Positions 18,776 to 53,404 of a stretch of DNA of 64,000 nucleotides are shown here, one piece after another. The stretch covers positions 10,602-74,601 of the forward strand of contig DUOD01000003.1 in assembly GCA_012838995.1 (NCBI GenBank), read 5' to 3'. Position 1 is the first letter of the stretch. Each line of letters begins with the position of its first letter. Both the position numbers and the translations under genes were made by a program. Below the pieces are notes generated by a model, which was given only the letters and a program-made list of their open reading frames with translations, made no database searches and was not told the origin of the DNA. The DNA is from Clostridiales bacterium. GTDB lineage: Bacteria > Bacillota > Clostridia > DUOD01.

Positions 18776-18814
18776 AAACGCCATGGTTTTTTCGAAATCA
18801 TGGCGTTTTTTCTT
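18776..18814 (+). terminator. probable rho-independent terminator downstream of pgi
   Basis: Sequence AACGCCATG...CATGGCGTT followed by TTTTTTC. Confidence 0.55.
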
Positions 18815-18951
18815 TGTAGCCAGGGCCGGTGGTTAGATATTATATAAATAATTTCATAATTTAGGAGGAAAATAACAAAACAGGAAGAATATATACATAT
18901 TATACCTTATATGGAAAAATGTAGAATAATGTATTATTGTGGGGGAAGGGT

Positions 18952-19845
18952 ATGAGATATTCAAGGTTACGAAGAAAAAAGCAAGGCAGGAAACATATAA
19001 AAATTCTGTCCATATTACTTATTGTTTTTTTAGTACTTTTTTTTGGTCTGGCCGGATTTTTAGGAAAGTTCATAAGCAACTTTATTATTTCACCGATTTT
19101 TACCCAGCAAGGGTCGACCGTAGATGATGAAACCTTACCCCCCGATGGGAATGAATCGGAAAGTCAAAGGACAAAGGATGAAGCAGACGGTCTTTCGGAT
19201 CAAAGGCTTACCGAGAATATACAATTAAAACCTATAAATTTTTATGCACTTCAGGTAGGAGCCTATGAAGATATAAAAAACTGCCAATTAAAAGTTAATG
19301 AAATAAAACCCCTTGGCGAGGGCGGATATGTCCTTGAAGATAACTATTTTAGAGCCATTGCCGGCATGTATACCACAAATAAACAAATAGAGGAGGCCGA
19401 AAAAGCATTACATAAAAAGGGCATAGAATACAGGGTGCATTCCATACCCTGTAAGGGTTTAAATTTAAAAGTGAGTGCCTCTTCTGATAGGGTTGAATTT
19501 ATCGATGAAAGCATTCAGCTTATCCATCAGGTCTTAAACCAAATGCCCCAGCTAACGGTGGAAGTCCAAAAGGGCGATAAAGACGTTGCGACGGCGGTAA
19601 AGGAACTGAAAATTATCTATGAACAAATAAAGGAAAAGTTAAAAACCTTATCATCGCTGGCCAAAGGAGATAACAAGCCGCTGACCGGCATGAAAAATAT
19701 ATACGAAAATTATGAACAAAGGGTTAAAATTATAATTGACGAAAATTTCACAAATTCAATGGTCTTTTTGTCTCAAATAAAGTATACTTATAGTGAAATG
19801 GTGATTATGTATAGAGATTTTATAAACCATCTGTCCACGAAATAA
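18952..19845 (+). CDS. membrane-anchored SPOR-domain protein with uncharacterised C-terminal domain
   Basis: A basic N-terminus and TM helix are followed by an acidic linker. The SPOR fold is suggested by INFYALQVGAYEDIKNCQLKVNEIKPLGEGGYVLEDNYFRAIAGMYTTNKQIEEAEK. A GGGGGAAGGG RBS lies upstream of ATG 18952. Confidence 0.6.
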   Translation: MRYSRLRRKKQGRKHIKILSILLIVFLVLFFGLAGFLGKFISNFIISPIFTQQGSTVDDETLPPDGNESESQRTKDEADGLSDQRLTENIQLKPINFYALQVGAYEDIKNCQLKVNEIKPLGEGGYVLEDNYFRAIAGMYTTNKQIEEAEKALHKKGIEYRVHSIPCKGLNLKVSASSDRVEFIDESIQLIHQVLNQMPQLTVEVQKGDKDVATAVKELKIIYEQIKEKLKTLSSLAKGDNKPLTGMKNIYENYEQRVKIIIDENFTNSMVFLSQIKYTYSEMVIMYRDFINHLSTK

Positions 19846-19864: not shown

Positions 19865-20215
19865 GTGAAACTTCGACAAATAATTGAAATACTAGACGGA
19901 CAACTCATTTGCGGAAGTCAGCTTTTAGATACTGAAATAAAATCTGCCTGTGGTTCTGATCTGATGAGCGATGTTTTGCTCTTTGTCAAAAAAAACAGCA
20001 TCCTGCTGACGGGCTTAACCCATCCTCAGGTTATAAGGACGGCAGAGATGCTTGATGTTAAGGCGATTGTACTGGTTAGGGGAAAAAGACCCAGTCCCAT
20101 GTTAATTCAAATGGCCCGGGAAAACAATATTGCCATCGTTACCACCGACTATACCTTATACACCGCCTGCGGCAAGCTGTACGTTAATGGTCTGTCGGGG
20201 GAAATGGACGAATAA
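19865..20215 (+). CDS. DRTGG-domain protein (hydrogenase-associated regulatory module)
   Basis: 116 aa of DRTGG type (...VLLTGLTHPQVIRTAEMLDVKAIVLVRGKRPSP.MI..A.ENNIAIV.T). Start is GTG. Confidence 0.7.
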   Translation: MKLRQIIEILDGQLICGSQLLDTEIKSACGSDLMSDVLLFVKKNSILLTGLTHPQVIRTAEMLDVKAIVLVRGKRPSPMLIQMARENNIAIVTTDYTLYTACGKLYVNGLSGEMDE

Positions 20216-20218
20216 ATT

Positions 20219-20656
20219 ATGAAAAACAACAAACCGTCGATTAAGCAAACATTCGATATATCGGCAGGGAACTTCTCGGTTGCAGGCAGTGCGTCAAGCA
20301 GAATAAAAAACATGCTTAAACGGATTGGTATAGACGACAAAATAATCCGTCGGGTTGCTGTGGCCACCTATGAGGCGGAAATGAACATCGCAATCCATTC
20401 CCACGGTGGAACGCTATGTATTGAAATTTTCCCGGATGTAATAATTATAGTTGCAAAGGACAAAGGTCCCGGCATCAAGAATGTAGCCTTAGCCATGGAG
20501 GAGGGGTATTCAACGGCAACGGATGAAATCAGGGCAATGGGCTTTGGTGCGGGTATGGGATTGCCGAATATGAAAAAATGTTCTGACGAATTTGATATAC
20601 AATCAACATTGGGTGTTGGTACCAGGGTGGAAATGAAAATGTATAATAAAGAATAA
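20219..20656 (+). CDS. SpoIIAB/RsbW-like anti-sigma-factor-type serine kinase (HATPase_c_2)
   Basis: 145 aa with a GHKL ATPase core: N-box AVATYEAEMNIAIHS and G-boxes DKGPGI and GFGAGMGL. Confidence 0.7.
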   Translation: MKNNKPSIKQTFDISAGNFSVAGSASSRIKNMLKRIGIDDKIIRRVAVATYEAEMNIAIHSHGGTLCIEIFPDVIIIVAKDKGPGIKNVALAMEEGYSTATDEIRAMGFGAGMGLPNMKKCSDEFDIQSTLGVGTRVEMKMYNKE

Positions 20657-20673
20657 TAATAGGGGATGAGGCT

Positions 20674-21984
20674 ATGAATAATAACTACTTCCATTCAGTA
20701 AGGCTTGATAAGGAAAAATGCAAGGGCTGTACAAATTGCATAAAACGATGCCCCACTGAAGCCATTAGGGTAAGGGACGGCAAAGCGAAAATAATGGATG
20801 AGCGGTGTATCGACTGTGGTGAATGTATAAGGATATGCCCGTATCATGCCAAGAAGGCCGTTACCGATGATTTGAAGGCCCTTGATAAATACAAGTACAA
20901 TATAGCGCTACCCGCCCCGACTCTGTATGGACAGTTTAAGGGGCTGACCGATATCAATTATGTATTATCCGCCCTGTTATCCCTTGGCTTTGATGATGTT
21001 TATGAGGTAGCTTGGGCTGCGGATATTGTATCTGCTAAAATACGTTCCCTTATTAAGGATAAAAAAGGAAAGAAACCCTATATATCATCGGCTTGTCCTG
21101 CCATTGTAAGGCTTATACAAGTAAGGTTTCCAAATCTTATAGATAATATAATAGATGTTCAATCCCCCATGGAGGTTGCGGGGTTATTGGCAAGAAAGGA
21201 GGCGGCGGGAAAATACTCTCTTGACGATAAAGACATAGGCGTGTTTTTTATCACTCCCTGTGCAGCCAAAATGACCAGCATCAAAAATCCGGTGGGCATG
21301 GCAAAGTCATATGTAAATGGTGCCATTGCCATACCCAGTGTATATGGGATGCTGTCTTCAACCATGAAAAAGGAAAACGTTAAGAAACTTCAACGTTCAA
21401 CGGCCTACGGAATCGGCTGGGCAAATTCCGGCGGAGAAAGCAATGCCTTAGGTGTGGAAAACTATCTTGCAGTGGATGGCATCCAAAATGTTATTAAAGT
21501 ACTCGATGAGATAGAGAACAACAAGTTAAATGACCTGGATTTCTTCGAAGGGTTGGCCTGTACCGGTGGTTGCGTCGGGGGTCCCCTTACCGTAGAGAAC
21601 GGTTTTGTTGCAAAAAACAGGATAAAGAGGCTTGTTAAAAACAATGAAAAGGTAAGGCTGTCACAGCATCAATTAGATGATGTGTGTAAAGATATTGCTA
21701 TCCATTACTCGGAAGAAATTTTGCCCAAAAGCATCATGAAGCTGGATGACGATGTGGCCAAAGCCATAGAAAAGATGAACTTAATTGACAAAATATACGA
21801 CGATCTTCCGGGTCTTGATTGCGGTTCGTGCGGCTCCCCCAGTTGTAAGACTCTGGCGGAGGATATAGTAAGGGGCTATGCTTCGGAGATGGACTGTATA
21901 TTTAAGCTCCGTGAAAAGGTGAAGGGACTGGCGCAACAGATGATTGAATTGTATAATAAAATACCTACCGGCAAAGAACGATAG
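20674..21984 (+). CDS. HydS-like putative sensory [FeFe]-hydrogenase paralog (2x[4Fe-4S] + H-cluster domain with non-catalytic substitutions + C-terminal Cys4 cluster)
   Basis: The N-terminus has CKGCTNCIKRCP and CIDCGECIRICP. The H-cluster motifs are altered: L1 is SSACPAIV where the canonical motif is TSCCPGW, L2 is TPCAAK where it is MPCxxK, and L3 is EGLACTGGCVGGP with Leu in place of Met. The C-terminus has CGSCGSPSC. Confidence 0.8.
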   Translation: MNNNYFHSVRLDKEKCKGCTNCIKRCPTEAIRVRDGKAKIMDERCIDCGECIRICPYHAKKAVTDDLKALDKYKYNIALPAPTLYGQFKGLTDINYVLSALLSLGFDDVYEVAWAADIVSAKIRSLIKDKKGKKPYISSACPAIVRLIQVRFPNLIDNIIDVQSPMEVAGLLARKEAAGKYSLDDKDIGVFFITPCAAKMTSIKNPVGMAKSYVNGAIAIPSVYGMLSSTMKKENVKKLQRSTAYGIGWANSGGESNALGVENYLAVDGIQNVIKVLDEIENNKLNDLDFFEGLACTGGCVGGPLTVENGFVAKNRIKRLVKNNEKVRLSQHQLDDVCKDIAIHYSEEILPKSIMKLDDDVAKAIEKMNLIDKIYDDLPGLDCGSCGSPSCKTLAEDIVRGYASEMDCIFKLREKVKGLAQQMIELYNKIPTGKER

Positions 21985-21996
21985 GGGTGTATGCTA

Positions 21997-22338
21997 ATGA
22001 AGGTAAAGGTTTTGTGTGAAAAGCTCGGTCTGTCCGTAATAGCAGGAAATGAATATTTAAACAGGGAAATAAAATCGGGGTATTGTTGCGATCTTCTTAG
22101 TTTAGTGATGTCCAAGGCTGACAAGGGATGTTGCTGGGTTACGGTACAAACCCATCCAAATATTGTGGCTGTGGCTTCCCTGCTGGAGGTGGGATGTATA
22201 ATAATTCCCGAAGCCATTCAAGTGGAAGATAATACGCGCAAAAAGGCGGAGCAGGAGGGTATTCCCATCCTTTCTTCGGATATGAACGGATTTGAGCTGT
22301 GCGGGAGATTGTATAGCCTACTGGGGGAGGGCCGATAG
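21997..22338 (+). CDS. DRTGG-domain protein (second copy)
   Basis: ~113 aa, paralogous to the gene at 19865. A GGGGTG RBS lies 8 nt upstream of ATG 21997. Confidence 0.7.
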   Translation: MKVKVLCEKLGLSVIAGNEYLNREIKSGYCCDLLSLVMSKADKGCCWVTVQTHPNIVAVASLLEVGCIIIPEAIQVEDNTRKKAEQEGIPILSSDMNGFELCGRLYSLLGEGR

Positions 22339-23052
22339 TTGAGCAAATGGTCCTATGATCTCCATATTCATACAGCTCTATCCCCTTGTGCCTCTGACGA
22401 TATGACTCCCAACAATATTGTTAACATGTCCGTATTAAAGGGTTTGGATGTGATAGCCATAACCGATCATAACAGCTGCAACAACGCCCAGGCCGTTATA
22501 AAGGTGGGGTTTGATAAGGGTCTTAAAGTTTTGCCCGGTATGGAGGTGCAAACCCAGGAAGAAGTCCACTTGCTTTGTTTGTTTGGAGACATAGACAGGG
22601 CGATGGGTTTTCAGGATATCTTATATAAAACATGGCCTTACCTGCCCAATGACCCACAGCTTTTCGGCGAACAGTTAATTTTCGATGATAAGGACAATAT
22701 TATCGGTAAAGAGGACAGGCTGCTTCTAACATCGGTAAACATGTCCATAGAAGAGGTATGTTATCATGTGACTGAAAGGGAGGGCATAGTAATACCCGCC
22801 CATATAGACAGACAGTCGTACAGCATTATCTCAAACCTCGGGTTTATACCCGAAACGGCAAATTTCACCCTTGTGGAAATAAGCAAGGATTGTGACTTTG
22901 ATGAGCTTCGTAAAAAATATCCTTATCTGAAAAATTATTATCCTATTATCAATTCAGATTCCCACTCCCTTGGGTCCATCATGGAACCCATTCATTTCCT
23001 TACTCCCCATCATTTAAATTTATTGCGAACGGTTATGAAAAAAATAAGATAA
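22339..23052 (+). CDS. PHP-domain metal-dependent phosphoesterase
   Basis: PHP motifs YDLHIHTALSPCAS and DVIAITDHN are present. Start is TTG with a GGGGGAGGG RBS 7 nt upstream, and the start overlaps the preceding stop. Confidence 0.75.
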   Translation: MSKWSYDLHIHTALSPCASDDMTPNNIVNMSVLKGLDVIAITDHNSCNNAQAVIKVGFDKGLKVLPGMEVQTQEEVHLLCLFGDIDRAMGFQDILYKTWPYLPNDPQLFGEQLIFDDKDNIIGKEDRLLLTSVNMSIEEVCYHVTEREGIVIPAHIDRQSYSIISNLGFIPETANFTLVEISKDCDFDELRKKYPYLKNYYPIINSDSHSLGSIMEPIHFLTPHHLNLLRTVMKKIR

Positions 23053-23208
23053 ATATTTGTTAAATTTTTGCCAAAACTAATGCAAACTTATAAGTTTTAT
23101 GTTAAAATGGTATAGAATTTATATTGATAAATTTTTATCAATAATAAATTAGAGCTCTTATGGGACTTATATTTATTTTTATGTGTATTTTGAGGGGGGA
23201 GAGAAAAA

Positions 23209-23688
23209 ATGTCTCGATGCAAAAATTGCACCAATAAACTAAGTTTTGAAAAATTAGAAAAAGTAATTGAAAAATACAAGGATAAGGAAGGGGCATTAAT
23301 GCCGATAATGCACGAAGCTCAAGAAATCTTCGGCTATCTTCCTATAGAAGTGCAGAATTATATAGCAGAAGCATTGAAAATACCCATAACCGATGTATAT
23401 GGCGTAGCCACCTTTTATTCCCAGTTTTCTTTGAAGCCAAAGGGAAAATATAATATTTCCGTTTGTATGGGCACCGCTTGTTATGTCAAAGGGGCCCAAA
23501 AAATATTAGACAGGCTTAAAGAGGAATTAAATGTAGAAGTCGGAGAAACCACAGAAGACGGAAAATTTACCATTACCGCCACCCGTTGTCTGGGAGCTTG
23601 TGGATTGGCACCTGTAATAATGGTAAATGATGATGTCTACGGCAGATTGGTAGAGGATGATATACCGGGCATTATCAAAAAGTATTAA
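23209..23688 (+). CDS. NADH-linked [FeFe]-hydrogenase NuoE-like [2Fe-2S] subunit (HndA/HydC type)
   Basis: NuoE/thioredoxin-like fold with CMGTACYVKG and CLGACGLAP. A GAGGGGGGAG RBS lies upstream. Confidence 0.9.
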   Translation: MSRCKNCTNKLSFEKLEKVIEKYKDKEGALMPIMHEAQEIFGYLPIEVQNYIAEALKIPITDVYGVATFYSQFSLKPKGKYNISVCMGTACYVKGAQKILDRLKEELNVEVGETTEDGKFTITATRCLGACGLAPVIMVNDDVYGRLVEDDIPGIIKKY

Positions 23689-23690
23689 AA

Positions 23691-24233
23691 ATGCGCGACT
23701 TATCCCTTCATATACTGGATATCGTTCAGAATTCCATAGATGCGGCCGCTGATTTTATACAAGTAACGGTAGATGTACAACCGAAAGAAGACCGGCTGGT
23801 AATAACCGTTAGCGATAACGGGAGGGGAATGGATGAAGCGCTGGTGGAAAAAATAACCGATCCCTTCGTAACGGGAAGGACTACCAGAAAAGTAGGTCTT
23901 GGGTTGGCTTTACTGGAAGCGGCGGTGCAAAGAAGCGACGGCGATCTTAGCATCAGCTCCCGGCCGGGAGTGGGGACAACGGTAACGGCGCGGTTTAGAT
24001 ACCGACATATAGACAGGCCTCCCATGGGGGATTTAACGCAAACAATAATCAGTTTGATCCTATGTAATCCTGATATAGATTTTTTATTTCGTTATATATA
24101 CGGCCAAAGGGAATTCAAACTGGATACCAGGGAGATAAGGGCACATATCGGCGATATGGACATCAACGATATAAGGATTGTTGATTGGATAAGGGAATAT
24201 GTGCAGGCAGGAATAGAAGGAAAAATTGATTAA
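23691..24233 (+). CDS. stand-alone histidine-kinase-like ATPase (HATPase_c) protein embedded in hydrogenase operon
   Basis: N-box HILDIVQNSIDA, then SDNGRGMD and GLGLALLEA. There is no DHp/His-phosphotransfer domain and no sensor domain. Confidence 0.7.
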   Translation: MRDLSLHILDIVQNSIDAAADFIQVTVDVQPKEDRLVITVSDNGRGMDEALVEKITDPFVTGRTTRKVGLGLALLEAAVQRSDGDLSISSRPGVGTTVTARFRYRHIDRPPMGDLTQTIISLILCNPDIDFLFRYIYGQREFKLDTREIRAHIGDMDINDIRIVDWIREYVQAGIEGKID

Positions 24234-24251
24234 CTAATGGAGGTGTCGAGA

Positions 24252-24632
24252 GTGAAGAGTATAAAAGAGCTGGAAGAAATAAGGAAAAAAACTTTGGAAA
24301 AGGTCAATCTACGGAAGGACAGGAAAGGTACCAGAGTGGTTGTGGGTATGGCCACATGTGGCATAGCCGCAGGCGCAAGACCGGTACTTTTATCATTCGT
24401 AGAAGAGATAAATAAGCGAAAATTAATGGATGTGACCGTATCTCAAACGGGGTGCATAGGTGTATGTAGATTGGAACCCATTGTAGAAGTTTATAAACCG
24501 GGACAGGATAAAGTAACATATGTAAAGATGACACCGGATAAGGTTGCAAAGGTGGTATCTGAACATATAGTCAATGACAGGCCGGTTATAGAATATACAA
24601 TAGGATATGTAGAAAATAGACAGAACAAGTAA
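24252..24632 (+). CDS. thioredoxin-like [2Fe-2S] ferredoxin subunit (HndB type)
   Basis: Cys ligands lie in VVGMATCGIAAG and TGCIGVCRLEP. A GGAGGTG RBS lies 6 nt upstream of GTG 24252, and the ORF track start 24237 is an alternative. Confidence 0.75.
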   Translation: MKSIKELEEIRKKTLEKVNLRKDRKGTRVVVGMATCGIAAGARPVLLSFVEEINKRKLMDVTVSQTGCIGVCRLEPIVEVYKPGQDKVTYVKMTPDKVAKVVSEHIVNDRPVIEYTIGYVENRQNK

Positions 24633-24653: not shown

Positions 24654-26450
24654 ATGGATTTTTTTCGTTCTCATGTTTTGATATGTGGCGGGACCGGATG
24701 CCATGCATCGGGTTCTGATGATCTGATAGAGGAATTTGACAGGCTCATTGAAGAGAAAAAATTGCAAAGGGAAGTAAAGGTAGTAAGAACAGGTTGTTTT
24801 GGTCTTTGCGAATTAGGCCCTGTGGTGATTGTCTATCCCGAAGGAGCGTTTTACAGCAGGGTTAATAAAGAGGACGTACAGGAAATAGTAGAGGAACATT
24901 TAATAAAGGGTAGGATAGTAAAGAGGCTGTTATACCACGATAGCATCGCCAAAGACGATACAATAAAATCTTTATCGGATGTTGGTTTCTACAAAAAGCA
25001 GAAGAGAATAACTTTGAGAAACTGTGGTGTAATAGATCCCGAGAACATCGACGAATATATCGCCTTTGACGGATATAAAGCCCTGGCCAAGGTACTGACG
25101 GAAATGTCCAGAGAAGAAGTTATCCAAACCATTAAATTGTCCGGCCTTAGGGGAAGGGGCGGCGGTGGTTTCCCTACGGGTTTGAAATGGGAGTTCACCT
25201 ATAGGGCCAAGGGCGACAAGAAGTATGTATGCTGTAACGCCGACGAGGGAGACCCTGGTGCCTTCATGGACAGGAGTATCCTTGAAGGTGATCCCCATTC
25301 AGTGCTGGAAGCCATGGCCATAGCAGGTTATGCGGTAGGCTCTGATCAAGGGTATATATATGTCAGGGCGGAATATCCCATAGCGGTAAGAAGGCTTAAC
25401 ATTGCCATTGAACAGGCCAGGGAATACGGACTGTTGGGCAATAATATTTTCGGTTCGGGGTTTAATTTCGACATCGAACTTAGACTGGGTGCAGGTGCTT
25501 TTGTCTGTGGAGAGGAAACGGCGCTAATGGCTTCAATAGAAGGCAAAAGAGGAGAACCCAGACCCAGGCCTCCGTTCCCTGCCAGCAAGGGTTTGTTTGG
25601 CAAGCCAACCTTGCTCAATAATGTGGAAACCTATGCCAATATTCCCCCGATAATTCTAAAGGGTAGCGAATGGTTTTCCTCAATAGGAACGGAAGGCAGT
25701 AAAGGTACCAAGGTATTCGCCCTGGGCGGCAACATAAATAACACCGGTTTGTTGGAGATACCCATGGGTACCACTCTAAGGGAAATTGTATATGAAATAG
25801 GCGGTGGCATACCCGGCGGTAAGGAATTTAAAGCGGCTCAAACCGGAGGACCGTCCGGCGGTTGTATACCCGCTTCCCACCTGGATACGCCCATAGACTA
25901 TGACTCTCTTATGGAAGTCGGGTCGATGATGGGTTCGGGCGGATTAATAGTCATGGATGAAGATACATGTATGGTGGATATAGCAAGGTTTTTCCTGGAT
26001 TTTACCGTTGAAGAATCCTGCGGTAAGTGTCCGCCCTGCAGAATAGGTACCAAGAGGATGCTTGAGATACTGGATAGGATAACCAGTGGTAAGGGTCAGG
26101 AAGGTGACATCGAAAAACTTGAAACTCTGGCAAAAAATATTAAGGCTTCCGCCCTGTGCGGACTGGGGCAAACGGCACCAAACCCGGTATTGAGCACCTT
26201 GAGGTATTTCAGGGATGAATACGAAGCCCATATAAAAGAAAAGAAATGTCCGGCAGGGGCATGTACGGCCCTTTTAACCTACACCATTATCGATGATCTG
26301 TGCAAGGGTTGTAGCTTATGTGCAAAGCATTGTCCTGTAGAGGCGATAAGCGGGAAACCAAAATCTCCTTATGTTATTGACCAGGAAAAATGCATTAAAT
26401 GCGGTGTATGTATGGAAAAATGCCCCTTCAAGGCAATAGAGAAGAAATAG
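24654..26450 (+). CDS. NADH-binding NuoF-like flavoprotein subunit of [FeFe]-hydrogenase (HndC/HydB type)
   Basis: An N-terminal thioredoxin-like [2Fe-2S] domain precedes the NuoF core, with GLRGRGGGGFPTGLKWEF (FMN/NADH), a SLBB domain and C-terminal 2x[4Fe-4S] (CKGCSLCAKHCP, CIKCGVCMEKCP). Confidence 0.9.
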   Translation: MDFFRSHVLICGGTGCHASGSDDLIEEFDRLIEEKKLQREVKVVRTGCFGLCELGPVVIVYPEGAFYSRVNKEDVQEIVEEHLIKGRIVKRLLYHDSIAKDDTIKSLSDVGFYKKQKRITLRNCGVIDPENIDEYIAFDGYKALAKVLTEMSREEVIQTIKLSGLRGRGGGGFPTGLKWEFTYRAKGDKKYVCCNADEGDPGAFMDRSILEGDPHSVLEAMAIAGYAVGSDQGYIYVRAEYPIAVRRLNIAIEQAREYGLLGNNIFGSGFNFDIELRLGAGAFVCGEETALMASIEGKRGEPRPRPPFPASKGLFGKPTLLNNVETYANIPPIILKGSEWFSSIGTEGSKGTKVFALGGNINNTGLLEIPMGTTLREIVYEIGGGIPGGKEFKAAQTGGPSGGCIPASHLDTPIDYDSLMEVGSMMGSGGLIVMDEDTCMVDIARFFLDFTVEESCGKCPPCRIGTKRMLEILDRITSGKGQEGDIEKLETLAKNIKASALCGLGQTAPNPVLSTLRYFRDEYEAHIKEKKCPAGACTALLTYTIIDDLCKGCSLCAKHCPVEAISGKPKSPYVIDQEKCIKCGVCMEKCPFKAIEKK

Positions 26451-26479
26451 AGCAAATAAGCGGAAAAGGAGTGAAAGGG

Positions 26480-28222
26480 ATGGATATGGTAACAATAACC
26501 ATAGACGGAAAGGAAGTAAAAGTTCCCAGCAATTATACCGTTCTCGAAGCTGCAAGAAGCGTTAATATAGATATACCCACCCTTTGTTATTTAAAGGGTA
26601 TAAACGAAATAGGTGCATGCAGGATGTGTCTTGTGGAAGTTAAGGGGGCAAGGTCGCTGCAGGCTGCCTGTGTCTATCCGGTGTCGGACGGCTTAGAGGT
26701 CGTGACCAATTCCCCCGCGGTGAGGGAGGCAAGAAAGGTTAATTTGGAGCTTATTCTGTCCAACCATGACAGAAAATGCCTGACTTGTGTCAGAAACGGC
26801 AATTGTGAGCTCCAAAAACTGGCGGAACAATTAAATGTACAAGAGATCAGGTTTGACGGTGAAAACATTAAACGAAATATTGATAATGCATCGCCTTCTA
26901 TAGTAAGGGATGCAAACAAGTGCATCCTGTGTAGAAGATGTGTCAGCGTATGCCACGATGTACAGGGTGTTGGGGTAATCTCGGCAACTGAGCGGGGCTT
27001 TGATACAATAATAGAGCCTGTTTTCAACAAAAGCCTGGATGAGGTGCCCTGCGTTAAGTGTGGACAGTGTATTATGGCTTGTCCTGTAGGCGCGCTAAGG
27101 GAAAAGGATGATATTGATAAGGTATGGGATGCCATCAATGATCCCGAGCTTCATGTTGTGGTACAGACGGCACCGGCAATAAGGGTTTCTCTGGGTGAAG
27201 AATTCGGCCTGCCCATGGGGACCAGGGTTACCGGAAAAATGGTATCCGCATTAAGGAAGCTAGGCTTTGATAAGGTGTTCGATACGGATTTCGCAGCCGA
27301 CCTAACTATAATGGAGGAAGGAACAGAACTTTTAGATAGGTTGAAAAATGGCGGCAAGCTGCCACTTATTACATCCTGCAGCCCTGGATGGATAAAATAT
27401 TGCGAGCATTTCCATCCGGACATGTTGGAAAATTTATCAACCTGTAAGTCTCCCCATGAAATGTTGGGGGCGTTGGTTAAATCCTACTACGCCGAAAAAG
27501 AAGGGATAGATCCCTCCAAGATAGTCGTGGTTTCAATCATGCCCTGTACGGCTAAAAAGTTTGAGGCCCAAAGACCGGAATTGAGCGCAACGGGCTATCC
27601 TGATGTGGATATTGTATTAACCACCAGAGAGCTGGCCCGTATGATAAAGGAGGCCGGTATAGACTTTAATACTTTAGAGGATGAAGACTTTGATGATACG
27701 CTGGGCATATCAACGGGTGCCGGGGTTATATTCGGAGCCACCGGCGGTGTTATGGAGGCAGCCTTAAGGACGGTAGCTGAATTGGCCACGGGTAAAGAGT
27801 TGAAAAATATTGAATATAAAAATGTAAGGGGTATAGACGGCGTAAAGGAAACCCAGGTGGAAATGGGCGATATGAAGATTAATGCTGCCGTTGCCCATGG
27901 TTTGGGAAATGCAAAAAAATTGCTGGATAAGGTAAAATCCGGTGAAAAGGAATACCATTTTATTGAGATAATGGGTTGCCCCGGCGGCTGTGTAACAGGG
28001 GGTGGACAGCCCATACTAAGCGCTAAGGAGCTTATGGATATAGATCCCAAGGTTGAAAGGGCCAAGGCTATTTATTCCGAGGATGAATCCTTAACCTTTA
28101 GGAAGTCCCATGAAAACCCGCAGATTAAAGCATTATACGAAGAATTTTTGAAGGAACCCAACAGTCATAAGGCCCATCAACTCCTTCATACCCATTACAA
28201 AAAAAGGATTAAATACTGCTAA
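26480..28222 (+). CDS. hydA: [FeFe]-hydrogenase catalytic subunit (HydA/HndD type) with atypical L1 motif TSCSPGW
   Basis: An N-terminal [2Fe-2S] plant-type ferredoxin domain, a His-ligated [4Fe-4S] and 2x[4Fe-4S] precede the H-cluster domain. The H-cluster domain has L1 TSCSPGW, L2 MPCTAKKFE and L3 EIMGCPGGCVTGGGQP. An AAAAGGAGTG RBS lies upstream. Confidence 0.9.
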   Translation: MDMVTITIDGKEVKVPSNYTVLEAARSVNIDIPTLCYLKGINEIGACRMCLVEVKGARSLQAACVYPVSDGLEVVTNSPAVREARKVNLELILSNHDRKCLTCVRNGNCELQKLAEQLNVQEIRFDGENIKRNIDNASPSIVRDANKCILCRRCVSVCHDVQGVGVISATERGFDTIIEPVFNKSLDEVPCVKCGQCIMACPVGALREKDDIDKVWDAINDPELHVVVQTAPAIRVSLGEEFGLPMGTRVTGKMVSALRKLGFDKVFDTDFAADLTIMEEGTELLDRLKNGGKLPLITSCSPGWIKYCEHFHPDMLENLSTCKSPHEMLGALVKSYYAEKEGIDPSKIVVVSIMPCTAKKFEAQRPELSATGYPDVDIVLTTRELARMIKEAGIDFNTLEDEDFDDTLGISTGAGVIFGATGGVMEAALRTVAELATGKELKNIEYKNVRGIDGVKETQVEMGDMKINAAVAHGLGNAKKLLDKVKSGEKEYHFIEIMGCPGGCVTGGGQPILSAKELMDIDPKVERAKAIYSEDESLTFRKSHENPQIKALYEEFLKEPNSHKAHQLLHTHYKKRIKYC

Positions 28223-28273: not shown

Positions 28274-28311
28274 GGGGGACCGGTCCGATTACGAACGGGT
28301 CCCCTTTTTTT
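28274..28311 (+). terminator. rho-independent terminator after hydrogenase operon
   Basis: Sequence GGGGACCGGTCCgattacgaacGGGTCCCC followed by TTTTTTT. Confidence 0.8.
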
Positions 28312-28366: not shown

Positions 28367-28735
28367 ATGATGGGAATGAGGAAGATGGAATATATAAAGG
28401 TTATTATCTGCGGACTGGCTACAGGATTGTTTAACGGTTTGTTCGGGGCCGGCGGTGGTATAGTTTTAGTTCCGTCCCTGGTATTGTTGCTGGGCGTTGA
28501 GGAACATGATGCCCATGCCACCGCCATTTCAGTTATACTGCCCCTCACCCTGATAAGCGCTTTTATATACTATACCAAGGGCATTGCTAATTGGGATATC
28601 ACCTTGAGGGTGGCTTTAGGCGGAATGTTGGGGGGTTATATAGGGGCAAAGGTAATGAACCGGTTATCGGCAAATCTTCTGAGAAAGATTTTTTCAATAT
28701 TTATGGTGGCGGCAGCCATTAGGATGATGGTGTAA
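28367..28735 (+). CDS. TSUP/TauE-SafE family half-size (4-TM) membrane protein
   Basis: DUF81 pattern with GLFNGLFGAGGGIVLVPSLVLLLG. The exact start is ambiguous among ATG 28367, 28376 and 28385. Confidence 0.7.
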   Translation: MMGMRKMEYIKVIICGLATGLFNGLFGAGGGIVLVPSLVLLLGVEEHDAHATAISVILPLTLISAFIYYTKGIANWDITLRVALGGMLGGYIGAKVMNRLSANLLRKIFSIFMVAAAIRMMV

Positions 28736-29103
28736 TGCTGTTGTTTTTGATCGGTTTGTTATCCGGTATCATAGGCGGCATGGGGATAGGGGGCGGCACC
28801 ATATTAATACCTGCCTTGATATTGGTCGTTGGTCTAAAACAGCATATGGCCCAAAGTGTAAATCTTTTATCCTTTATTCCTACCGCAATTATTGCATTGA
28901 CAATACATTGGAAAAATAAGAACATTAAATGGAAGCTGGCCCTTCATATAATCCTTTTCGGAATTGTTGGAGCGGTTATAGGCTCATATCTGGCGGTCTG
29001 CCTTGCGCCGGGATCTTTAAGGAGAATTTTCGGTGCATTTTTACTAATTATGGGAGTGTATGAATTTTTCAGGAAGGGGAAGGTAGGCGAAAAAAAGACG
29101 TAA
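28735..29103 (+). CDS. TSUP/TauE-SafE family half-size (4-TM) membrane protein, second half
   Basis: Contains GIIGGMGIGGGTILIPALILVVG. The start overlaps the upstream stop in a TAATG arrangement, consistent with a split two-gene TSUP transporter. Confidence 0.7.
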   Translation: MLLFLIGLLSGIIGGMGIGGGTILIPALILVVGLKQHMAQSVNLLSFIPTAIIALTIHWKNKNIKWKLALHIILFGIVGAVIGSYLAVCLAPGSLRRIFGAFLLIMGVYEFFRKGKVGEKKT

Positions 29104-29273: not shown

Positions 29274-30605
29274 GTGGATTTCAAGTTATTAACATTTAAA
29301 GGGGGAATCTATCCACCCCATAACAAATCGGCTACCGAAAAAAAGCCAATAAAGGACGCGAAAGAAGGCAAACAAGTTATTATCCCTATGCAGCAACATG
29401 CAGGGGCACCCTGTAAGCCTTTGGTTTCCAAGGGTGATTATGTAAAAGTAGGTCAAAGGATAGGTGAACCCGATGGATTTGTGAGCGCCCCCGTTCATTC
29501 CAGCGTATCGGGTACTGTGACATCGGTTGGGCCCATGCTCCATCCTGCGGGTCAAAGGGTGATGTCGGTTGTAATTGAGCCCGATGGGTTAAACGCAATT
29601 GATGAGGGCATAGCACCAAAGGGTGACATTGACACCTTAAGTCCGAATGATATTAAATCCATTATCCAAGAATCCGGCATTGTGGGACTGGGCGGCGGGG
29701 TTTTTCCTACCCATGTAAAGTTATCGCCTCCGGAAGGGAAAAAGATAGATGCCATAATATTAAACGGTGCGGAATGCGAGCCTTATCTGACCGCCGATCA
29801 TAGGTTGATGCTGGAACGCCCGGAAGACGTTGTCTACGGACTGCGTGCCATGTTGAGGGCTACAGGCGTGAAAAGGGGATATATCGGCATTGAAAACAAT
29901 AAAAAGGATGCCATTGAAAGAATAAGGAAATGTATAAAGGACTCTCCCAATATAGAGCTTAAAGTATTGAAAACCAAATACCCCCAGGGCGCGGAAAAAC
30001 AGCTTATTTATGCCATTACCAAGCGTGTTGTGCCTTCCGGCGGATTACCCATGGATGTCGGAGTAATTGTAAATAATGTAGGAACGGCAGCGGCAATAGC
30101 CGAAGCTATTAAAACAGGTATGCCGTTAATCCAAAGGATAGTCACTGTCGCCGGTGATGGGGTTAAAGAGCCACAAAATCTAAGGGTAAAATTGGGCACG
30201 ACTTTCAAAGACGTGATTAATCAATGTGGCGGTATGGTAGGAGATGTGGGAAAGATAATCATGGGGGGCCCCATGATGGGAATCGCCCAATACGATTTAA
30301 ACGTTCCCGTCATTAAGTGCACTTCCGGTATATTGGTGTTAAGCAGGCAAAGCGCTTCACTCCCCGAGCAGGGACCATGTATTAGATGCGGCAAATGTAT
30401 AACCGTGTGTCCCGTAAACCTCATGCCGTTATTAATCAGCCAGTATATCCTGGATGATAACTTTGAACAGGCTGAAAAACACCATGCTTTAGACTGTATT
30501 GAATGCGGTTCATGTTCATATATTTGTCCGGCAAAAAGGCCGTTGTTACAGTCCATAAGGGTTGCCAAGGGTGTGATTATGGCCAACAAGAAGAAATGTA
30601 ACTAG
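29274..30605 (+). CDS. rnfC: Rnf electron transport complex subunit C
   Basis: RnfC family with an NADH-binding SLBB-like domain and C-terminal 2x[4Fe-4S] (CIRCGKCITVCP, CIECGSCSYICP). Start is GTG with an AAGTGAGGTG RBS. Confidence 0.9.
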   Translation: MDFKLLTFKGGIYPPHNKSATEKKPIKDAKEGKQVIIPMQQHAGAPCKPLVSKGDYVKVGQRIGEPDGFVSAPVHSSVSGTVTSVGPMLHPAGQRVMSVVIEPDGLNAIDEGIAPKGDIDTLSPNDIKSIIQESGIVGLGGGVFPTHVKLSPPEGKKIDAIILNGAECEPYLTADHRLMLERPEDVVYGLRAMLRATGVKRGYIGIENNKKDAIERIRKCIKDSPNIELKVLKTKYPQGAEKQLIYAITKRVVPSGGLPMDVGVIVNNVGTAAAIAEAIKTGMPLIQRIVTVAGDGVKEPQNLRVKLGTTFKDVINQCGGMVGDVGKIIMGGPMMGIAQYDLNVPVIKCTSGILVLSRQSASLPEQGPCIRCGKCITVCPVNLMPLLISQYILDDNFEQAEKHHALDCIECGSCSYICPAKRPLLQSIRVAKGVIMANKKKCN

Positions 30606-30617
30606 GGGGTCATTGAA

Positions 30618-31550
30618 ATGAATAAACTAATAGTTTCATCATCGCCTCATATTCTTTCCAAAAATTCGATTCAACGAATAATGCTCGATGTCATCATAGC
30701 TCTAATGCCCGCTCTTGTAGCAGCAATTATATTTTTTGGACATAGGGCATTGGTTATTACTATAGTATCGGTGGCAGCTGCCGTTTTGACCGAAGCAGTG
30801 TTACAAAAGCTTTGTAAAAAACCGGTTACCGTCAATGATTTAAGTGCGGTGGTTAGCGGAATATTAATTGCATTTAATTTACCGGTGAGTGTACCCTTAT
30901 GGATGCCCGTAGTGGGTTCGGTTTTTGCCATGGCACTAGTGAAGTTCGTCTTTGGTGGTTTGGGACATAATTTCATGAACCCTGCCTTGGCTGCACGGGC
31001 CTTATTAACAGTATCCTGGCCTGCCAGGATGGCGGGTGCGGTATGGACCCAGCCGGGCAACATAGACGTTATCGGTATTGCAACACCTTTGGAGCTTTTA
31101 AAAGCAGGAGAAAATCTGCCTGGTATATATGATCTTTTCATGGGAAACGTGGCGGGTTGTCTGGGGGAAACCTCTGCCCTTGCTTTATTGATAGGCGGTA
31201 TATACCTTCTTTTAAGGGGTGTTATTAACTGGAGAACGCCGGTTACCTTTATAGGCAGTGTGGCTTTGATTAGCTGGATATTTGGCGTAAATCCATTGTA
31301 TAGCATCCTTGCCGGAGGTTTAATGCTGGGTGCCCTGTTCATGGCTACCGATTATGCCACTGCTCCGGTAACGCCCAAGGGGCAGTTAATAATGGGTGTT
31401 GGATGCGGGGTAATAACTACTTTTATCCGCTTGTTCGGAGGTTACCCCGAAGGGGTAAGTTATTCAATATTGTTTATGAATGTTATGACACCACTGATTG
31501 ATAAATTTACCATGCCTAAAAAATTTGGTGGGGTGAAGACACATGCGTGA
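30618..31550 (+). CDS. rnfD: Rnf complex subunit D (NqrB-like)
   Basis: A polytopic membrane protein of the RnfD/NqrB family, carrying the FMN-attachment region. Confidence 0.9.
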   Translation: MNKLIVSSSPHILSKNSIQRIMLDVIIALMPALVAAIIFFGHRALVITIVSVAAAVLTEAVLQKLCKKPVTVNDLSAVVSGILIAFNLPVSVPLWMPVVGSVFAMALVKFVFGGLGHNFMNPALAARALLTVSWPARMAGAVWTQPGNIDVIGIATPLELLKAGENLPGIYDLFMGNVAGCLGETSALALLIGGIYLLLRGVINWRTPVTFIGSVALISWIFGVNPLYSILAGGLMLGALFMATDYATAPVTPKGQLIMGVGCGVITTFIRLFGGYPEGVSYSILFMNVMTPLIDKFTMPKKFGGVKTHA

Positions 31551-32115
31551 CATATTAAACCTAGGAATTAGATTATTCATAATAACGGTGGTTGCTGTTT
31601 TTTGTCTGGCTATTACCAATGCATATACTAAAGAGCCCATAAGAATAACCGCGGAAAATGCAAATAATGAGGTCAGACGCATGGCATTGCCGCAGGCCCA
31701 AAATTTTGAAGTTGTGGATATACAAGGCAAAAATATCGATGGTTTCAGCAATATTCTTGAAGTATATACCGGCCTTGATCCTCAGGGCCAGGTAATAGGC
31801 TATACCGTAAAGACCATATCCAAGGGTTATGGCGGGGATGTTGAAGTTATTGTCGGAATAAAGAAAGACGGTAAGATATCCAGTGTACAAATAGGAGATC
31901 ATAGCGAAACGCCCGGGTTGGGATCCAAGGCAACCGAACCTGGGTTTATTGATCAGTTTGTAGGCAAATCAGCTTCCGAATCTCTTGCATTGTCCAAGAG
32001 TTCCGCTGCTGCCGACAACGAGATACAGGCTGTTACAGGAGCTACCGTGACATCCCAAGCGGTAATAAACGGTGTTAATACGGCCATCCAGTTTTACAAT
32101 GAAATATTAAAGTAG
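31543..32115 (+). CDS. rnfG: Rnf complex subunit G (FMN-binding)
   Basis: An N-terminal TM helix precedes an FMN_bind domain ending AVTGATVTSQAV. The gene overlaps rnfD by 8 nt. Confidence 0.85.
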   Translation: MRDILNLGIRLFIITVVAVFCLAITNAYTKEPIRITAENANNEVRRMALPQAQNFEVVDIQGKNIDGFSNILEVYTGLDPQGQVIGYTVKTISKGYGGDVEVIVGIKKDGKISSVQIGDHSETPGLGSKATEPGFIDQFVGKSASESLALSKSSAAADNEIQAVTGATVTSQAVINGVNTAIQFYNEILK

Positions 32116-32161
32116 AAATATAAATATTTGGGTTTTACAATGTATTTTGGAGGTGTAATCC

Positions 32162-32755
32162 TTGTTATTACGGACTTTAACCAACGGTATAATAAAAGAA
32201 AACCCGATTTTCAGGTTGGTGTTGGGTATGTGTCCTACCTTGGCTGTTACAACGGCAGCCATTAACGGTCTGGGTATGGGTTTTGCAACGATGTTGGTGC
32301 TCATTGGTTCCAATATTGTTATTTCATTATTAAAGAAATTTATTCCCGATAAGGTGAGGATACCGGCTTACGTAGTGGTAATAGCCTCTTTTACAACCAT
32401 AGTGGGTATGTTTTTAAAGGCCTTTGCCCCAGAACTTGACAAGTCACTGGGACTGTTTATACCATTGATAGTTGTAAATTGTTTAATATTGGCCAGGGCG
32501 GAAGCCTTTGCTTCTCAAAATTCCGTACTCCATTCTATTTTGGACGGCTTGGGTATGGGTCTGGGCTTTACATTGGCTTTAACGATCCTTGGGATTATCA
32601 GGGAGCTAATCGGTGCAGGCAGCATATTCGGTATAAATGTTATGGGTAGCGCCTACGAACCCGCTATTATAATGATTTTACCTCCAGGGGCCTTTTTAAC
32701 CCTCGGTTTGCTACTAGGGCTAATAAATAAGCTGACTGTCAAGTCGAGTTCGTAG
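32162..32755 (+). CDS. rnfE: Rnf complex subunit E
   Basis: RnfE/NqrD family 6-TM protein. Start is TTG with a GGAGGTG RBS 6 nt upstream. Confidence 0.9.
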   Translation: MLLRTLTNGIIKENPIFRLVLGMCPTLAVTTAAINGLGMGFATMLVLIGSNIVISLLKKFIPDKVRIPAYVVVIASFTTIVGMFLKAFAPELDKSLGLFIPLIVVNCLILARAEAFASQNSVLHSILDGLGMGLGFTLALTILGIIRELIGAGSIFGINVMGSAYEPAIIMILPPGAFLTLGLLLGLINKLTVKSSS

Positions 32756-32774
32756 ATGAAAGGGGCTGAGATAA

Positions 32775-33368
32775 ATGGTCGCAACTTCTGTTTCTAAGAT
32801 TTTTATAATATTGCTGAGTTCAATATTGGTCAATAATTTTGTAATGTCGAGATTTTTGGGCATCTGTCCATTTTTAGGCGTATCTAAAAAGGTAGAAACA
32901 GCGGTGGGCATGGGTGCGGCTGTTACCTTTGTAATGGCCTTAGCATCGGTTATAACATACGCGATACAATATGCAATTTTGGAACCTTTGGGGATTGGAT
33001 ATTTGCAAACAATTGCTTTTATACTTGTTATCGCCACCCTGGTACAATTTGTGGAAATGGTCATCCAAAAGAGCAGTCCCTCTTTGTATCAATCACTGGG
33101 CGTGTATCTGCCTTTGATAACCACCAATTGTGCGGTTCTTGGTGTGGCAATATTGAATATACAAGAACAGTATACCTTACTTGAAACGTTGATTAACGGA
33201 ATAGGCGCGGCATTGGGCTTTACGTTGGCAATTGTGTTATTTGCCGGCATAAGGGAAAGGTTGGAAACGGCGCCTATACCCAAATCCCTTAAGGGATTCC
33301 CCATTGCCCTTATTACTGCAGGGCTGATGTCCATTGCCTTTTTAGGATTCCAAGGATTGATAAAGTAA
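32775..33368 (+). CDS. rnfA: Rnf complex subunit A
   Basis: RnfA/NqrE family 6-TM protein, paralogous to rnfE. Confidence 0.9.
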   Translation: MVATSVSKIFIILLSSILVNNFVMSRFLGICPFLGVSKKVETAVGMGAAVTFVMALASVITYAIQYAILEPLGIGYLQTIAFILVIATLVQFVEMVIQKSSPSLYQSLGVYLPLITTNCAVLGVAILNIQEQYTLLETLINGIGAALGFTLAIVLFAGIRERLETAPIPKSLKGFPIALITAGLMSIAFLGFQGLIK

Positions 33369-33382
33369 AGGGGTGAAAAGCT

Positions 33383-34363
33383 ATGCTTGAAAATATATTA
33401 TGGCCGGTGGTCAGCCTGGGGATCATGTCTTTGGTATTCGGTGTAGGTCTGGCCTTGGCATCAAAGAAATTTGCTGTGGAAATAGATCCCAAGGTTGAAG
33501 AAGTAAGGCAAGTGCTGCCGGGGGCCAACTGCGGCGGATGCGGATTTGCCGGTTGCGACAGTTATGCGGAGGCAGTAGTTGCCGGCGAAGCTTCGGCAGC
33601 GGCATGTCCGCCGGGAGGCAGTGATGTGATGGCAAAGATAGCCGATATATTAGGTATACCATTGGATGCCCAAGAAAGAAATGTGGCCTCGGTTATGTGT
33701 GCAGGTCCTTGTACGGAGGAAAACAAAAAATACCAGTACCATGGTATAGCCGGCTGCAGAGCTGTAAGTATGTTATCAGGAGGAAACAAAGGCTGTAGCT
33801 ATGGATGTTTAGGATTGGGTACCTGTAAGAATAACTGTCCCTTTGATGCAATTTCCATATCAGGAGATGGGATAGCGGTGGTGAATGAAGATAAGTGCAC
33901 CGGATGCGGTAGATGTACTGAAGTTTGCCCCAGGGGCATTATACAACTTGTGCCGGCATCCCAAGGCGTAAGGGTACTGTGTTCCAGCAAAGACAGGGGC
34001 AAAACGGTGAAGGAATATTGTAAGGTAGGATGTATTGGCTGTCAAATATGCGTCAGAGCATGTAAGTTCGATGCCATAACATTTGAAGACAATCTCCCTA
34101 AAATCGACTATGATAAGTGCACGGGTTGCATGGTATGTGTTGAAAAATGCCCGACAAAGTCGATACATGGGGATTTATCCAAGAGGAAGACCGCTTCCAT
34201 CGACCAGGATGGGTGTATTGGATGTACCGTCTGTATAAAGGCATGTAAGTTTGATGCCATAGAAGGAGAAAGGAAGCAAAAACATAAGGTGTTGGAGGAT
34301 AAATGCGTAGGATGCGGACTGTGCGCAGTTAAATGTCCAAAGGATGCAATTACAATTCAATAG
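33383..34363 (+). CDS. rnfB: Rnf complex subunit B (polyferredoxin)
   Basis: An N-terminal TM helix is followed by multiple [4Fe-4S] CxxCxxCxxxCP motifs. Confidence 0.9.
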   Translation: MLENILWPVVSLGIMSLVFGVGLALASKKFAVEIDPKVEEVRQVLPGANCGGCGFAGCDSYAEAVVAGEASAAACPPGGSDVMAKIADILGIPLDAQERNVASVMCAGPCTEENKKYQYHGIAGCRAVSMLSGGNKGCSYGCLGLGTCKNNCPFDAISISGDGIAVVNEDKCTGCGRCTEVCPRGIIQLVPASQGVRVLCSSKDRGKTVKEYCKVGCIGCQICVRACKFDAITFEDNLPKIDYDKCTGCMVCVEKCPTKSIHGDLSKRKTASIDQDGCIGCTVCIKACKFDAIEGERKQKHKVLEDKCVGCGLCAVKCPKDAITIQ

Positions 34364-53315: not shown

Positions 53316-53404
53316 ATTTCAATGTGAAGCCGCTCAGGAAAGGTTATAAAAATCCTTGGGATTACCTTGTTCTGGCGAGACTGGTTTGAGGAGGTGTAAA
53401 CGGC

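Follow-up and report, generated by a model that had tools for sequence, protein, structure and literature searches.

Here we describe a candidate signaling cassette in a 64,000-nucleotide stretch of Clostridiales bacterium DNA (GenBank assembly GCA_012838995.1, contig DUOD01000003.1, positions 10,602 to 74,601 of the forward strand), referred to below as the window. At 19865-23052 lie genes for two small DRTGG-type proteins (DRTGG1 and DRTGG2), a SpoIIAB-like kinase, a putative sensory [FeFe] hydrogenase (HydS) and a PHP-family phosphoesterase, followed by the operon of a catalytic [FeFe] hydrogenase in which a stand-alone HATPase (HATP) is embedded. The locus is one ordinary instance of a known and widespread cassette, to which it adds nothing unique. 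HydS proteins of its class have been reported in such a setting, 5' of trimeric bifurcating hydrogenases and beside kinase genes, since 2010–2012; the route by which the cassette transmits its signal is not known in the literature to 2026. The general reading that we favor, at evenly balanced confidence, is an H2-sensing kinase cassette that regulates a bifurcating hydrogenase.

The cluster consists of ten tightly spaced open reading frames (ORFs) on the + strand (Table 1): the five cassette genes, which an earlier sequence-only reading had described as a co-directional set ahead of the hydrogenase operon and which are found exactly there, a 156-bp gap between PHP and NuoE, and five more ORFs reaching to 28222. 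The first block has the order DRTGG1, kinase, HydS, DRTGG2, PHP, with gaps of 3, 17, 6 and 0 bp, and the operon that follows has the order NuoE-HATP-ferredoxin-NuoF-HydA. Independent public gene calls for three further assemblies of this organism predict identical proteins (116, 145, 436, 115, 237, 159 and 180 aa). The Pfam search covered the cluster and its flanking genes, about 17.2–30.6 kb of the window, the flanks being pgi, a 302-aa ORF without family match, two half-size TauE genes and rnfC. DRTGG, HATPase_c_2, Fe_hyd_lg_C and PHP domains were assigned as the sequence-only reading had expected; DRTGG2 scores below the Pfam cut-off and is backed by a profile-profile comparison. Within the span searched we found no PAS, PP2C, STAS or receiver domain and no sigma factor, which for PP2C and STAS agrees with what had been claimed before. 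An Rfam scan detected no RNA elements in the cassette region.

As read from its motifs and gene context, the HydS-like protein belongs to group D (M2e) of the [FeFe] hydrogenases. Enzymes of group D are recognized by two clusters at the N-terminus and a Cx2Cx4Cx16C motif at the C-terminus, and by having neither Cys299 nor the PAS domain of group C; Met353 is replaced by a hydroxyl residue (Ser/Thr) in the group, and Met497 by Leu in TamHydS (Land 2020, PMC8163306), the enzyme of Thermoanaerobacter mathranii, which has high H2 affinity and slow turnover (PMC8163306, PMC13104023). In the window protein, Fer4 matches span residues 9-68, a PF04060 match spans residues 378-410, and the C-terminal Cx2Cx4Cx16C is formed by C383, C386, C391 and C408. 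All motifs that had been quoted as evidence of sensor-type substitutions and an extra C-terminal cluster are present in the translation: ISSACPAIV, ITPCAAK, EGLACTGGC, and CGSCGSPSC with its fourth Cys. In CpI numbering the substitutions are C299A (Ala140), M353T (Thr194) and M497L (Leu294). The four H-cluster cysteines (CpI C300, C355, C499 and C503; here C141, C196, C296 and C300) are invariant in 27 relatives, and Thr194 is at least 90% conserved among relatives. No PAS family was matched in HydS at E<=0.01 in Pfam, as previously noted, and the protein stops 28 residues past the last Cys. Because group D is defined by the absence of PAS, the missing domain is a class trait and not a loss. 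The earlier description of a module lacking its usual partners therefore has to be given up, as this is the standard group D (M2e) context, with the HydS gene 5' of a trimeric bifurcating group A hydrogenase and beside a kinase-like gene.

The resemblance to TamHydS comprises two [4Fe-4S] motifs, the H-domain, the C-terminal Cx2Cx4Cx16C motif, the lack of PAS, the loss of C299, the exchange of M497 for Leu, and the charged residues around the accessory clusters, which are conserved in 70 group D enzymes (Schumann 2026, PMC13104023). Paired by motif register and not by alignment with TamHydS itself, TamHydS R30, R32, R42, K35 and K58 correspond to R32, R34, R44, K37 and K60 in the window protein, and D378, S384, E392, D393 and D403 to D382, S388, E396, D397 and D407. 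The two proteins differ at M353, which is Ser in TamHydS and Thr here. Relatives from Thermoanaerobacteraceae and Thermoanaerobacterium are 57–59% identical to the window protein. The TamHydS papers (PMC8163306, PMC13104023) mention an AraC regulator, whereas genes for DRTGG proteins, PHP and a second HATPase are not discussed there.

Group C (M2f) HydS proteins (T. maritima, R. albus; T. saccharolyticum hfsABCD) also have a sensor-type H-domain without the proton-relay Cys, a C-terminal [4Fe-4S] motif, and kinase genes and hydrogenase operons as neighbors. They carry PAS (or MCP, as in locus L063 below) and are accompanied by PP2C, whereas the window cassette lacks both and has DRTGG and PHP proteins instead: no PAS follows the extra [4Fe-4S] motif, and no SpoIIE/PP2C gene occurs in the cluster or the flanking genes searched. 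The hfs-type cluster, which had been named as a possible refutation, is thus a PAS-bearing group C system that neither matches nor refutes the module in the window.

We analyzed one genome per species and found relatives in at least 589 species, so that the comparison of gene neighborhoods gives the window, which derives from the MAG of an uncultured member of Clostridia, no special standing. Synteny was scored, where the flank allowed, in the 80 best of these at least 589 species loci, with ORFs typed by profiles from the window proteins; the 80 include Christensenellales, Oscillospiraceae, Thermoanaerobacterium, Peptococcaceae, Herbivorax and Coprothermobacterota. The kinase gene lies directly 5' of HydS in every locus scored (75/75), and DRTGG1 lies 5' of the kinase in about 66 of 69. 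DRTGG2 is found in about 70/79 loci and PHP in 67/74, and the NuoE-HATP-ferredoxin-NuoF-HydA operon comes next in 39 of 64, the small ferredoxin gene after HATP being conserved. This arrangement is far beyond chance. Where no hydrogenase follows, the genes 3' of the cassette are heterogeneous, and no alternative target emerged among them. The association itself was described by Carere et al. 2012 (citing a 2010 classification), who placed M2e hydrogenases 5' of bifurcating hydrogenases and beside kinases, with Cthe_0335, Athe_1292, Csac_1857, TTE0887, Cphy_3798 and Teth39_1463 as examples; the organisms in their list include C. thermocellum, C. bescii and Caldanaerobacter.

The idea of an undescribed phospho-relay controlling the hydrogenase survives in part. 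The signaling logic does stand unexplained, as papers of 2020, 2024 and 2026 call group D function or signaling unknown, but the cassette itself is not undescribed, and expression already has a candidate controller in Rex. Our literature search retrieved no relevant paper joining DRTGG and hydrogenase, found the C. thermocellum cassette locus tags only in omics tables, and returned nothing on flanking kinase genes together with post-translational control of HydABC.

The composition of the cassette is best seen in variant loci, to which we added a second set of metagenome contigs found from HATP. The kinase cassette adjoins HATP in 27 of the 34 HATP-anchored loci whose upstream flank reaches at least 5 kb, divergently in 5 of the 27. 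HATP often lies directly 3' of PHP, or between DRTGG2 and PHP, and in many loci of the former type NuoE is shifted to the operon end. HATP behaves as a sixth cassette component that travels with the others. In five loci (L104, L118, L127, L135 and L144) the kinase is a CBS-CBS-kinase fusion, and the cassette genes do not enclose a group D HydS; in L127, L135 and L144 the whole fragment has none. The downstream DRTGG gene and HATP are present in all five, DRTGG1 and PHP in four of five each, and the neighboring genes are of hydrogenase or NuoEF type. The sensor position is swappable, being filled either by HydS or by a CBS pair fused to the kinase. These fusions appeared in the HATP-anchored loci only; among the 120 best kinase homologues there are no natural fusions, and all are stand-alone proteins of ~140 aa. 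L127 and L135 have the order kinase-DRTGG2-HATP-PHP, with DRTGG1 ahead in L127, and their DRTGG2-HATP-PHP order mirrors a second antagonist-kinase pair followed by a phosphoesterase. Seven loci that retain the kinase and HydS lack both DRTGG2 and PHP, DRTGG1 being retained in 5 of the 7, and L131 and L158 have PHP and HATP without the kinase. By this pattern the cassette divides into a DRTGG1-kinase-sensor unit and a DRTGG2-PHP-HATPase unit.

Several of these loci have further peculiarities. In L104 and L118 an insertion of NuoB-, NuoC- and NuoD-like genes separates the kinase from DRTGG2. CheW genes occur at L079:9062-9526, directly 5' of the kinase in a locus where DRTGG1 is absent, and at L019:8490-8942, 5' of DRTGG1. 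A HydS fused to an MCP signaling domain (L063:11407-13317) lies directly 3' of the M2e HydS. L131:1-4000 encodes a group C system with a HydS-PAS protein (571 aa, PAS at residues 413-510), a SpoIIE-type PP2C, a small ferredoxin and a 1146-aa HydA; it lies ~5 kb from a PHP-HATP-NuoE-ferredoxin-NuoF unit, and a kinase-like ORF and a second HATPase_c ORF are found alongside. Directly 5' of the cassette, L027, L037, L048 and L055 have a second operon, NuoE-NuoF-HydA, with an extended NuoF (about 1050–1080 aa) and without HATPase or small ferredoxin; in L037 and L055, Rex-like boxes lie between this operon and DRTGG1.

The kinase has intact N, G1 and G2 boxes and the full SpoIIAB catalytic signature, and its closest family is SpoIIAB/RsbW. 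DRTGG1 is a single-domain protein with an invariant D-L-M-S motif (Ser35), DRTGG2 has an invariant D-L-L-S motif (Ser37), and as judged by profile-profile comparison (99.7% probability) the two are paralogues. Of 218 DRTGG ORFs, 217 retain the motif Ser, on a helix that has the lowest AlphaFold2 (AF2) confidence in the protein, whereas both paralogues have other residues at the canonical DR and TGG positions. DRTGG1 is structurally closest to AF1212, the DRTGG domain of a CBS-pyrophosphatase, and the N-terminal domains of HPrK and MurE/F; the DRTGG2 profile found no match among PDB sequences. PHP has all its metal ligands, with H9, H11, D43, H44, E69, H77, H155, D207 and H209 invariant, as is S15-P16-C17 after the HxH. 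HATP matches the CA domain of KinB in a profile search of the PDB (7e-15). Its ATP-binding boxes are intact and D10, N14, D42xGxG and PF.T.R..R.VGLG are invariant; the C-terminal ~75 residues are conserved and have no family match. The previous description of HATP as a stand-alone HATPase without phosphotransfer domain is correct, since HATPase_c is its only domain and a HisKA/DHp His domain is missing; with Response_reg likewise absent from the cluster in Pfam, the locus does not qualify as a two-component system.

The structural operon would encode, judging by its subunits, an electron-bifurcating HydABC-type [FeFe] hydrogenase with predicted coupling to NADH and ferredoxin; HydA scores 960.8 bits against NF040763 (cut-off 765) and 846 bits against A. 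woodii HydA1 (7Q4V). At LITSCSPGWIKY, the motif of HydA is TSCSPGW, exactly as in A. woodii HydA1 (7Q4V); CpI and T. kivui HydA1 read TSCCPxW there, and the Ser of HydA aligns with the cluster-ligand Cys300. The operon is probably its own unit under transcription control by Rex, an NADH sensor, with the cassette as a separate layer. This is suggested by putative boxes in the PHP-NuoE gap, by boxes in related loci, and by an operator site in C. bescii. The boxes at 23057-23074 and 23124-23141, each with 2 mismatches to the clostridial Rex consensus TTGTTAAnnnnTTAACAA, are the only matches in the 64 kb at that threshold (<=2 mismatches; 0.82 expected). A Rex-like box occurs in the PHP-NuoE gap of 18 of 45 related loci, and such boxes are almost confined to this gap or to the region just 5' of DRTGG1. 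The strict Thermoanaerobacter-type consensus TTGTGAAnnnnTTCACAA, allowing 3 mismatches, gave 3 matches against 4.3 expected and was uninformative. In C. bescii, the Rex operator sites listed as tested by gel shift include one 5' of Athe_1295, with the entry "5 genes; Hyd hydrogenase system" (Sander 2018, PMC6391272). Athe_1295 would be the NuoE gene, by locus-tag spacing from the M2e gene Athe_1292 and assuming the gene order of the window. The Athe_1295-1299 operon (PMC6391272) then resembles that of the window in having NuoE-HATPase-ferredoxin-NuoF-HydA after a Rex operator, a putative one in the window, and just 3' of the M2e cassette; it differs in that the window boxes are sequence matches with mismatches.

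Our interpretation of the cassette draws on the two-tier sigma-B cascade, in which RsbS-RsbT, RsbU and RsbV-RsbW lead to sigma-B. In structure the window kinase is closely related to SpoIIAB and RsbW, and the cassette parallels the sigma-B and sigma-F modules (RsbR/S-RsbT-RsbU-RsbV-RsbW; SpoIIAA-SpoIIAB-SpoIIE) in having two GHKL proteins, two paralogous small partners and one putative phosphatase, in the order partner-kinase-(sensor)-partner-phosphatase-kinase-target. In this parallel DRTGG would stand for STAS, PHP for PP2C, and hydrogenase subunits for the sigma factor. Of the features of partner switching, a Ser/Thr kinase of the HATPase_c_2 type, complete with N, G1 and G2 boxes, is found, whereas a STAS antagonist phosphorylated on Ser and PP2C are not, PHP being the sole phosphoesterase. 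The cassette thus parallels partner switching yet fails family membership, with no STAS, PP2C or sigma factor among the genes searched. A parallel also exists to HoxJ/HoxA signaling in [NiFe] systems, where a slow hydrogenase serves as H2 sensor controlling a kinase; the proteins are unrelated, however, and HoxJ is a PAS histidine kinase acting with a response regulator, domains that are absent from the window cluster.

We tentatively propose a new modular cascade of the partner-switching type that would control flavin-based electron-bifurcating hydrogenases post-translationally and in parallel to Rex. Its partners would not be STAS proteins, its phosphatase would not belong to PP2C, and its sensors, HydS or a CBS pair fused to the kinase, sometimes with CheW, would be interchangeable. 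In TamHydS, H2 binds at an H-cluster with a disabled proton relay, which reports H2, and the window HydS may do likewise. The SpoIIAB-type kinase would read the HydS state, as suggested by the invariant adjacency of the two genes and by the loci that have a kinase-fused CBS sensor in place of HydS. DRTGG1 may serve as antagonist or substrate of this first kinase, while DRTGG2 would be a phospho-switch, phosphorylated on the invariant Ser of D-L-[LM]-S and dephosphorylated by PHP. HATP would be a second kinase or binder that acts post-translationally on the neighboring hydrogenase subunits. This specific two-tier mapping, drawn by analogy with sigma-B, is possible but doubtful.

A number of points weigh against the proposal. 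To our knowledge, HydS homologues are the only cassette proteins with phosphorylation, binding or phenotype data, and we know of no DRTGG domain that acts as a phospho-acceptor. An AF2 model of a DRTGG1+kinase fusion (17-row alignment) reached a predicted template-modeling score (pTM) of 0.54 without confident packing. Among solved structures, those nearest to PHP belong to nucleotide or nucleic-acid phosphoesterases (RNase AM 7UG9, 3E0F, TM0559, EndoQ, Cv1693), not PHP-type protein phosphatases. The redox state of TamHydS's C-terminal cluster is unchanged by H2 (Schumann 2026, PMC13104023). In ~40% of genomes no hydrogenase operon lies beside the cassette, and the target therefore need not be the neighboring enzyme. 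Finally, an AraC-type regulator lies beside TamHydS (Land 2020, PMC8163306) and would fit a transcriptional output in some species.

Such an output could in principle be general, with the kinase as an anti-sigma or anti-activator protein that, depending on HydS state, frees a sigma factor or regulator encoded elsewhere, thereby controlling expression and not activity. The position of the kinase nearest to the SpoIIAB/RsbW family, the AraC-family gene adjoining TamHydS (Land 2020, PMC8163306) and the ~40% of loci in which the cassette stands apart from the hydrogenase operon are consistent with this view. We nevertheless consider it unlikely, since the structural operon bears its own putative Rex-type operators and HATP is embedded among hydrogenase subunit genes. 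Moreover, an unsystematic check of cassette-adjacent ORFs revealed no sigma factor, and as sole DNA-binding proteins nearby a sensor-kinase/response-regulator pair 5' of the cassette in L063 and L079.

The relatives of PHP and DRTGG1 hint at a different output, small-molecule signaling, in which the DRTGG proteins would bind a nucleotide or metabolite, PHP would hydrolyze a (oligo)nucleotide signal, and the two GHKL proteins would be ATP-dependent switches and not kinases of DRTGG. RNase AM, the 3',5'-bisphosphate nucleotidase Cv1693, EndoQ and TM0559 on the PHP side, the AF1212, CBS-pyrophosphatase, HPrK and MurE/F structures nearest DRTGG1, and the kinase fusions of the variant loci, whose CBS pairs are sensors of adenine nucleotides, can all be accommodated by such a scheme. 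It does not account for the full SpoIIAB catalytic signature of the kinase or for an invariant Ser motif in proteins whose canonical DR and TGG residues are replaced, and no nucleotide cyclase or synthetase was found in the cassette; this output, too, strikes us as improbable.

It is also conceivable that the cassette does not signal. HydS would then be a hydrogenase of low activity, serving in catalysis or electron transfer, and the small genes would encode assembly, protection or maintenance factors for HydS or HydABC. TamHydS does turn over H2 at low rates (PMC8163306, PMC13104023), and a 2024 review terms group D functionally undefined. However, two GHKL ATP-binding proteins and a phosphoesterase in the cassette, a sensor position that a CBS pair can take, CheW in L019 and L079, the MCP-fused HydS of L063 and the disabled proton relay of HydS together make this a poor candidate. 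That the window holds an unusual HydS module, peculiar to its genome, which has lost PAS and phosphatase partners is already refuted and retains next to no probability: PAS, PP2C and STAS are truly absent from the genes searched, but at least 589 species, and published model organisms too, carry the same cassette, and PAS absence defines group D.

Table 1. Predicted features of the cassette and of the hydrogenase operon, in window positions
Feature	Position	Strand	Evidence
DRTGG1, 116 aa	19865..20215	+	Pfam DRTGG 7e-9
Kin, SpoIIAB/RsbW/RsbT-type GHKL Ser/Thr kinase, 145 aa	20219..20656	+	HATPase_c_2 8e-8; best NCBIfam SpoIIAB 8e-13
HydS, group D (M2e) putative sensory [FeFe] hydrogenase, 436 aa	20674..21984	+	two Fer4, Fe_hyd_lg_C 3e-35, PF04060 FeS 2e-11
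DRTGG2, 115 aa	21991..22338	+	Pfam DRTGG 9.8e-5 (below cut-off); hhalign against DRTGG1 family 99.7%
PHP-family metal-dependent phosphoesterase, 237 aa	22339..23052	+	Pfam PHP 6e-9
Rex-operator-like palindrome TTGTTAAATTTTTGCCAA	23057..23074	.	PHP-NuoE intergenic; <=2 mismatches to TTGTTAAnnnnTTAACAA
Second Rex-operator-like palindrome TTGATAAATTTTTATCAA	23124..23141	.	PHP-NuoE intergenic; <=2 mismatches to TTGTTAAnnnnTTAACAA
HydC, NuoE-like [2Fe-2S] subunit	23209..23688	+	Pfam 2Fe-2S_thioredx 8e-58; NCBIfam nuoE_fam above cut-off
HATP, stand-alone histidine-kinase-type CA domain	23691..24233	+	Pfam HATPase_c 7.8e-21, residues 7-104
Small thioredoxin-like [2Fe-2S] ferredoxin, HydD-like	24237..24632	+	NCBIfam fdxn_Clost 8e-11; weak Pfam 2Fe-2S_thioredx
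HydB, NuoF-like flavin/NADH subunit	24654..26450	+	Pfam Complex1_51K 3e-45, NADH_4Fe-4S 2e-36
HydA, catalytic subunit, NADH-dependent bifurcating-type group A [FeFe] hydrogenase	26477..28222	+	NCBIfam NF040763 FeFe_hydrog_A6
Terminator-like hairpin 3' of hydA	28282..28301	+	consensus match only

The surroundings of the cluster were also inspected. The 302-aa ORF (18937-19845, +), which has an N-terminal membrane anchor and no Pfam match, ends 19 bp 5' of DRTGG1; its middle shows a likeness to SPOR-type repeats, judged by eye, and homologues occupy the same position in 17 of the 80 genome loci and in several metagenome loci. As the ORF is preceded by a strong terminator-like hairpin (18776-18808), it may share a transcript with the cassette. 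On the 3' side lies a pair of neighboring half-size TauE/SafE genes, each encoding 122 aa (28367-28735 and 28735-29103, +), the first matching the C-terminal and the second the N-terminal half of the Pfam model; public gene calls split them likewise. Six co-directional ORFs (29274-34363, +) begin ~1 kb 3' of hydA, the first being rnfC by Pfam. If this run is a complete rnf operon, the bifurcating hydrogenase and a ferredoxin:NAD+ oxidoreductase adjoin. The sole Rfam match in the window is a ribosomal protein L21 leader (RF00559, 40.9 bits) at 53318-53392 (+).

In biofuel strains, as in fermenting Clostridia and the communities of gut and rumen, electron-bifurcating hydrogenases set the balance of H2, ethanol and acetate. 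Group D hydrogenases have been studied by spectroscopy for years without a known signaling partner. The existence of the cassette will not surprise a hydrogenase specialist. The comparative picture, however, names partners and residues: an invariant kinase, DRTGG paralogues with an invariant Ser, PHP, a traveling HATPase and swappable sensors. Group D signaling thereby becomes directly testable in tractable organisms that carry the same cassette.

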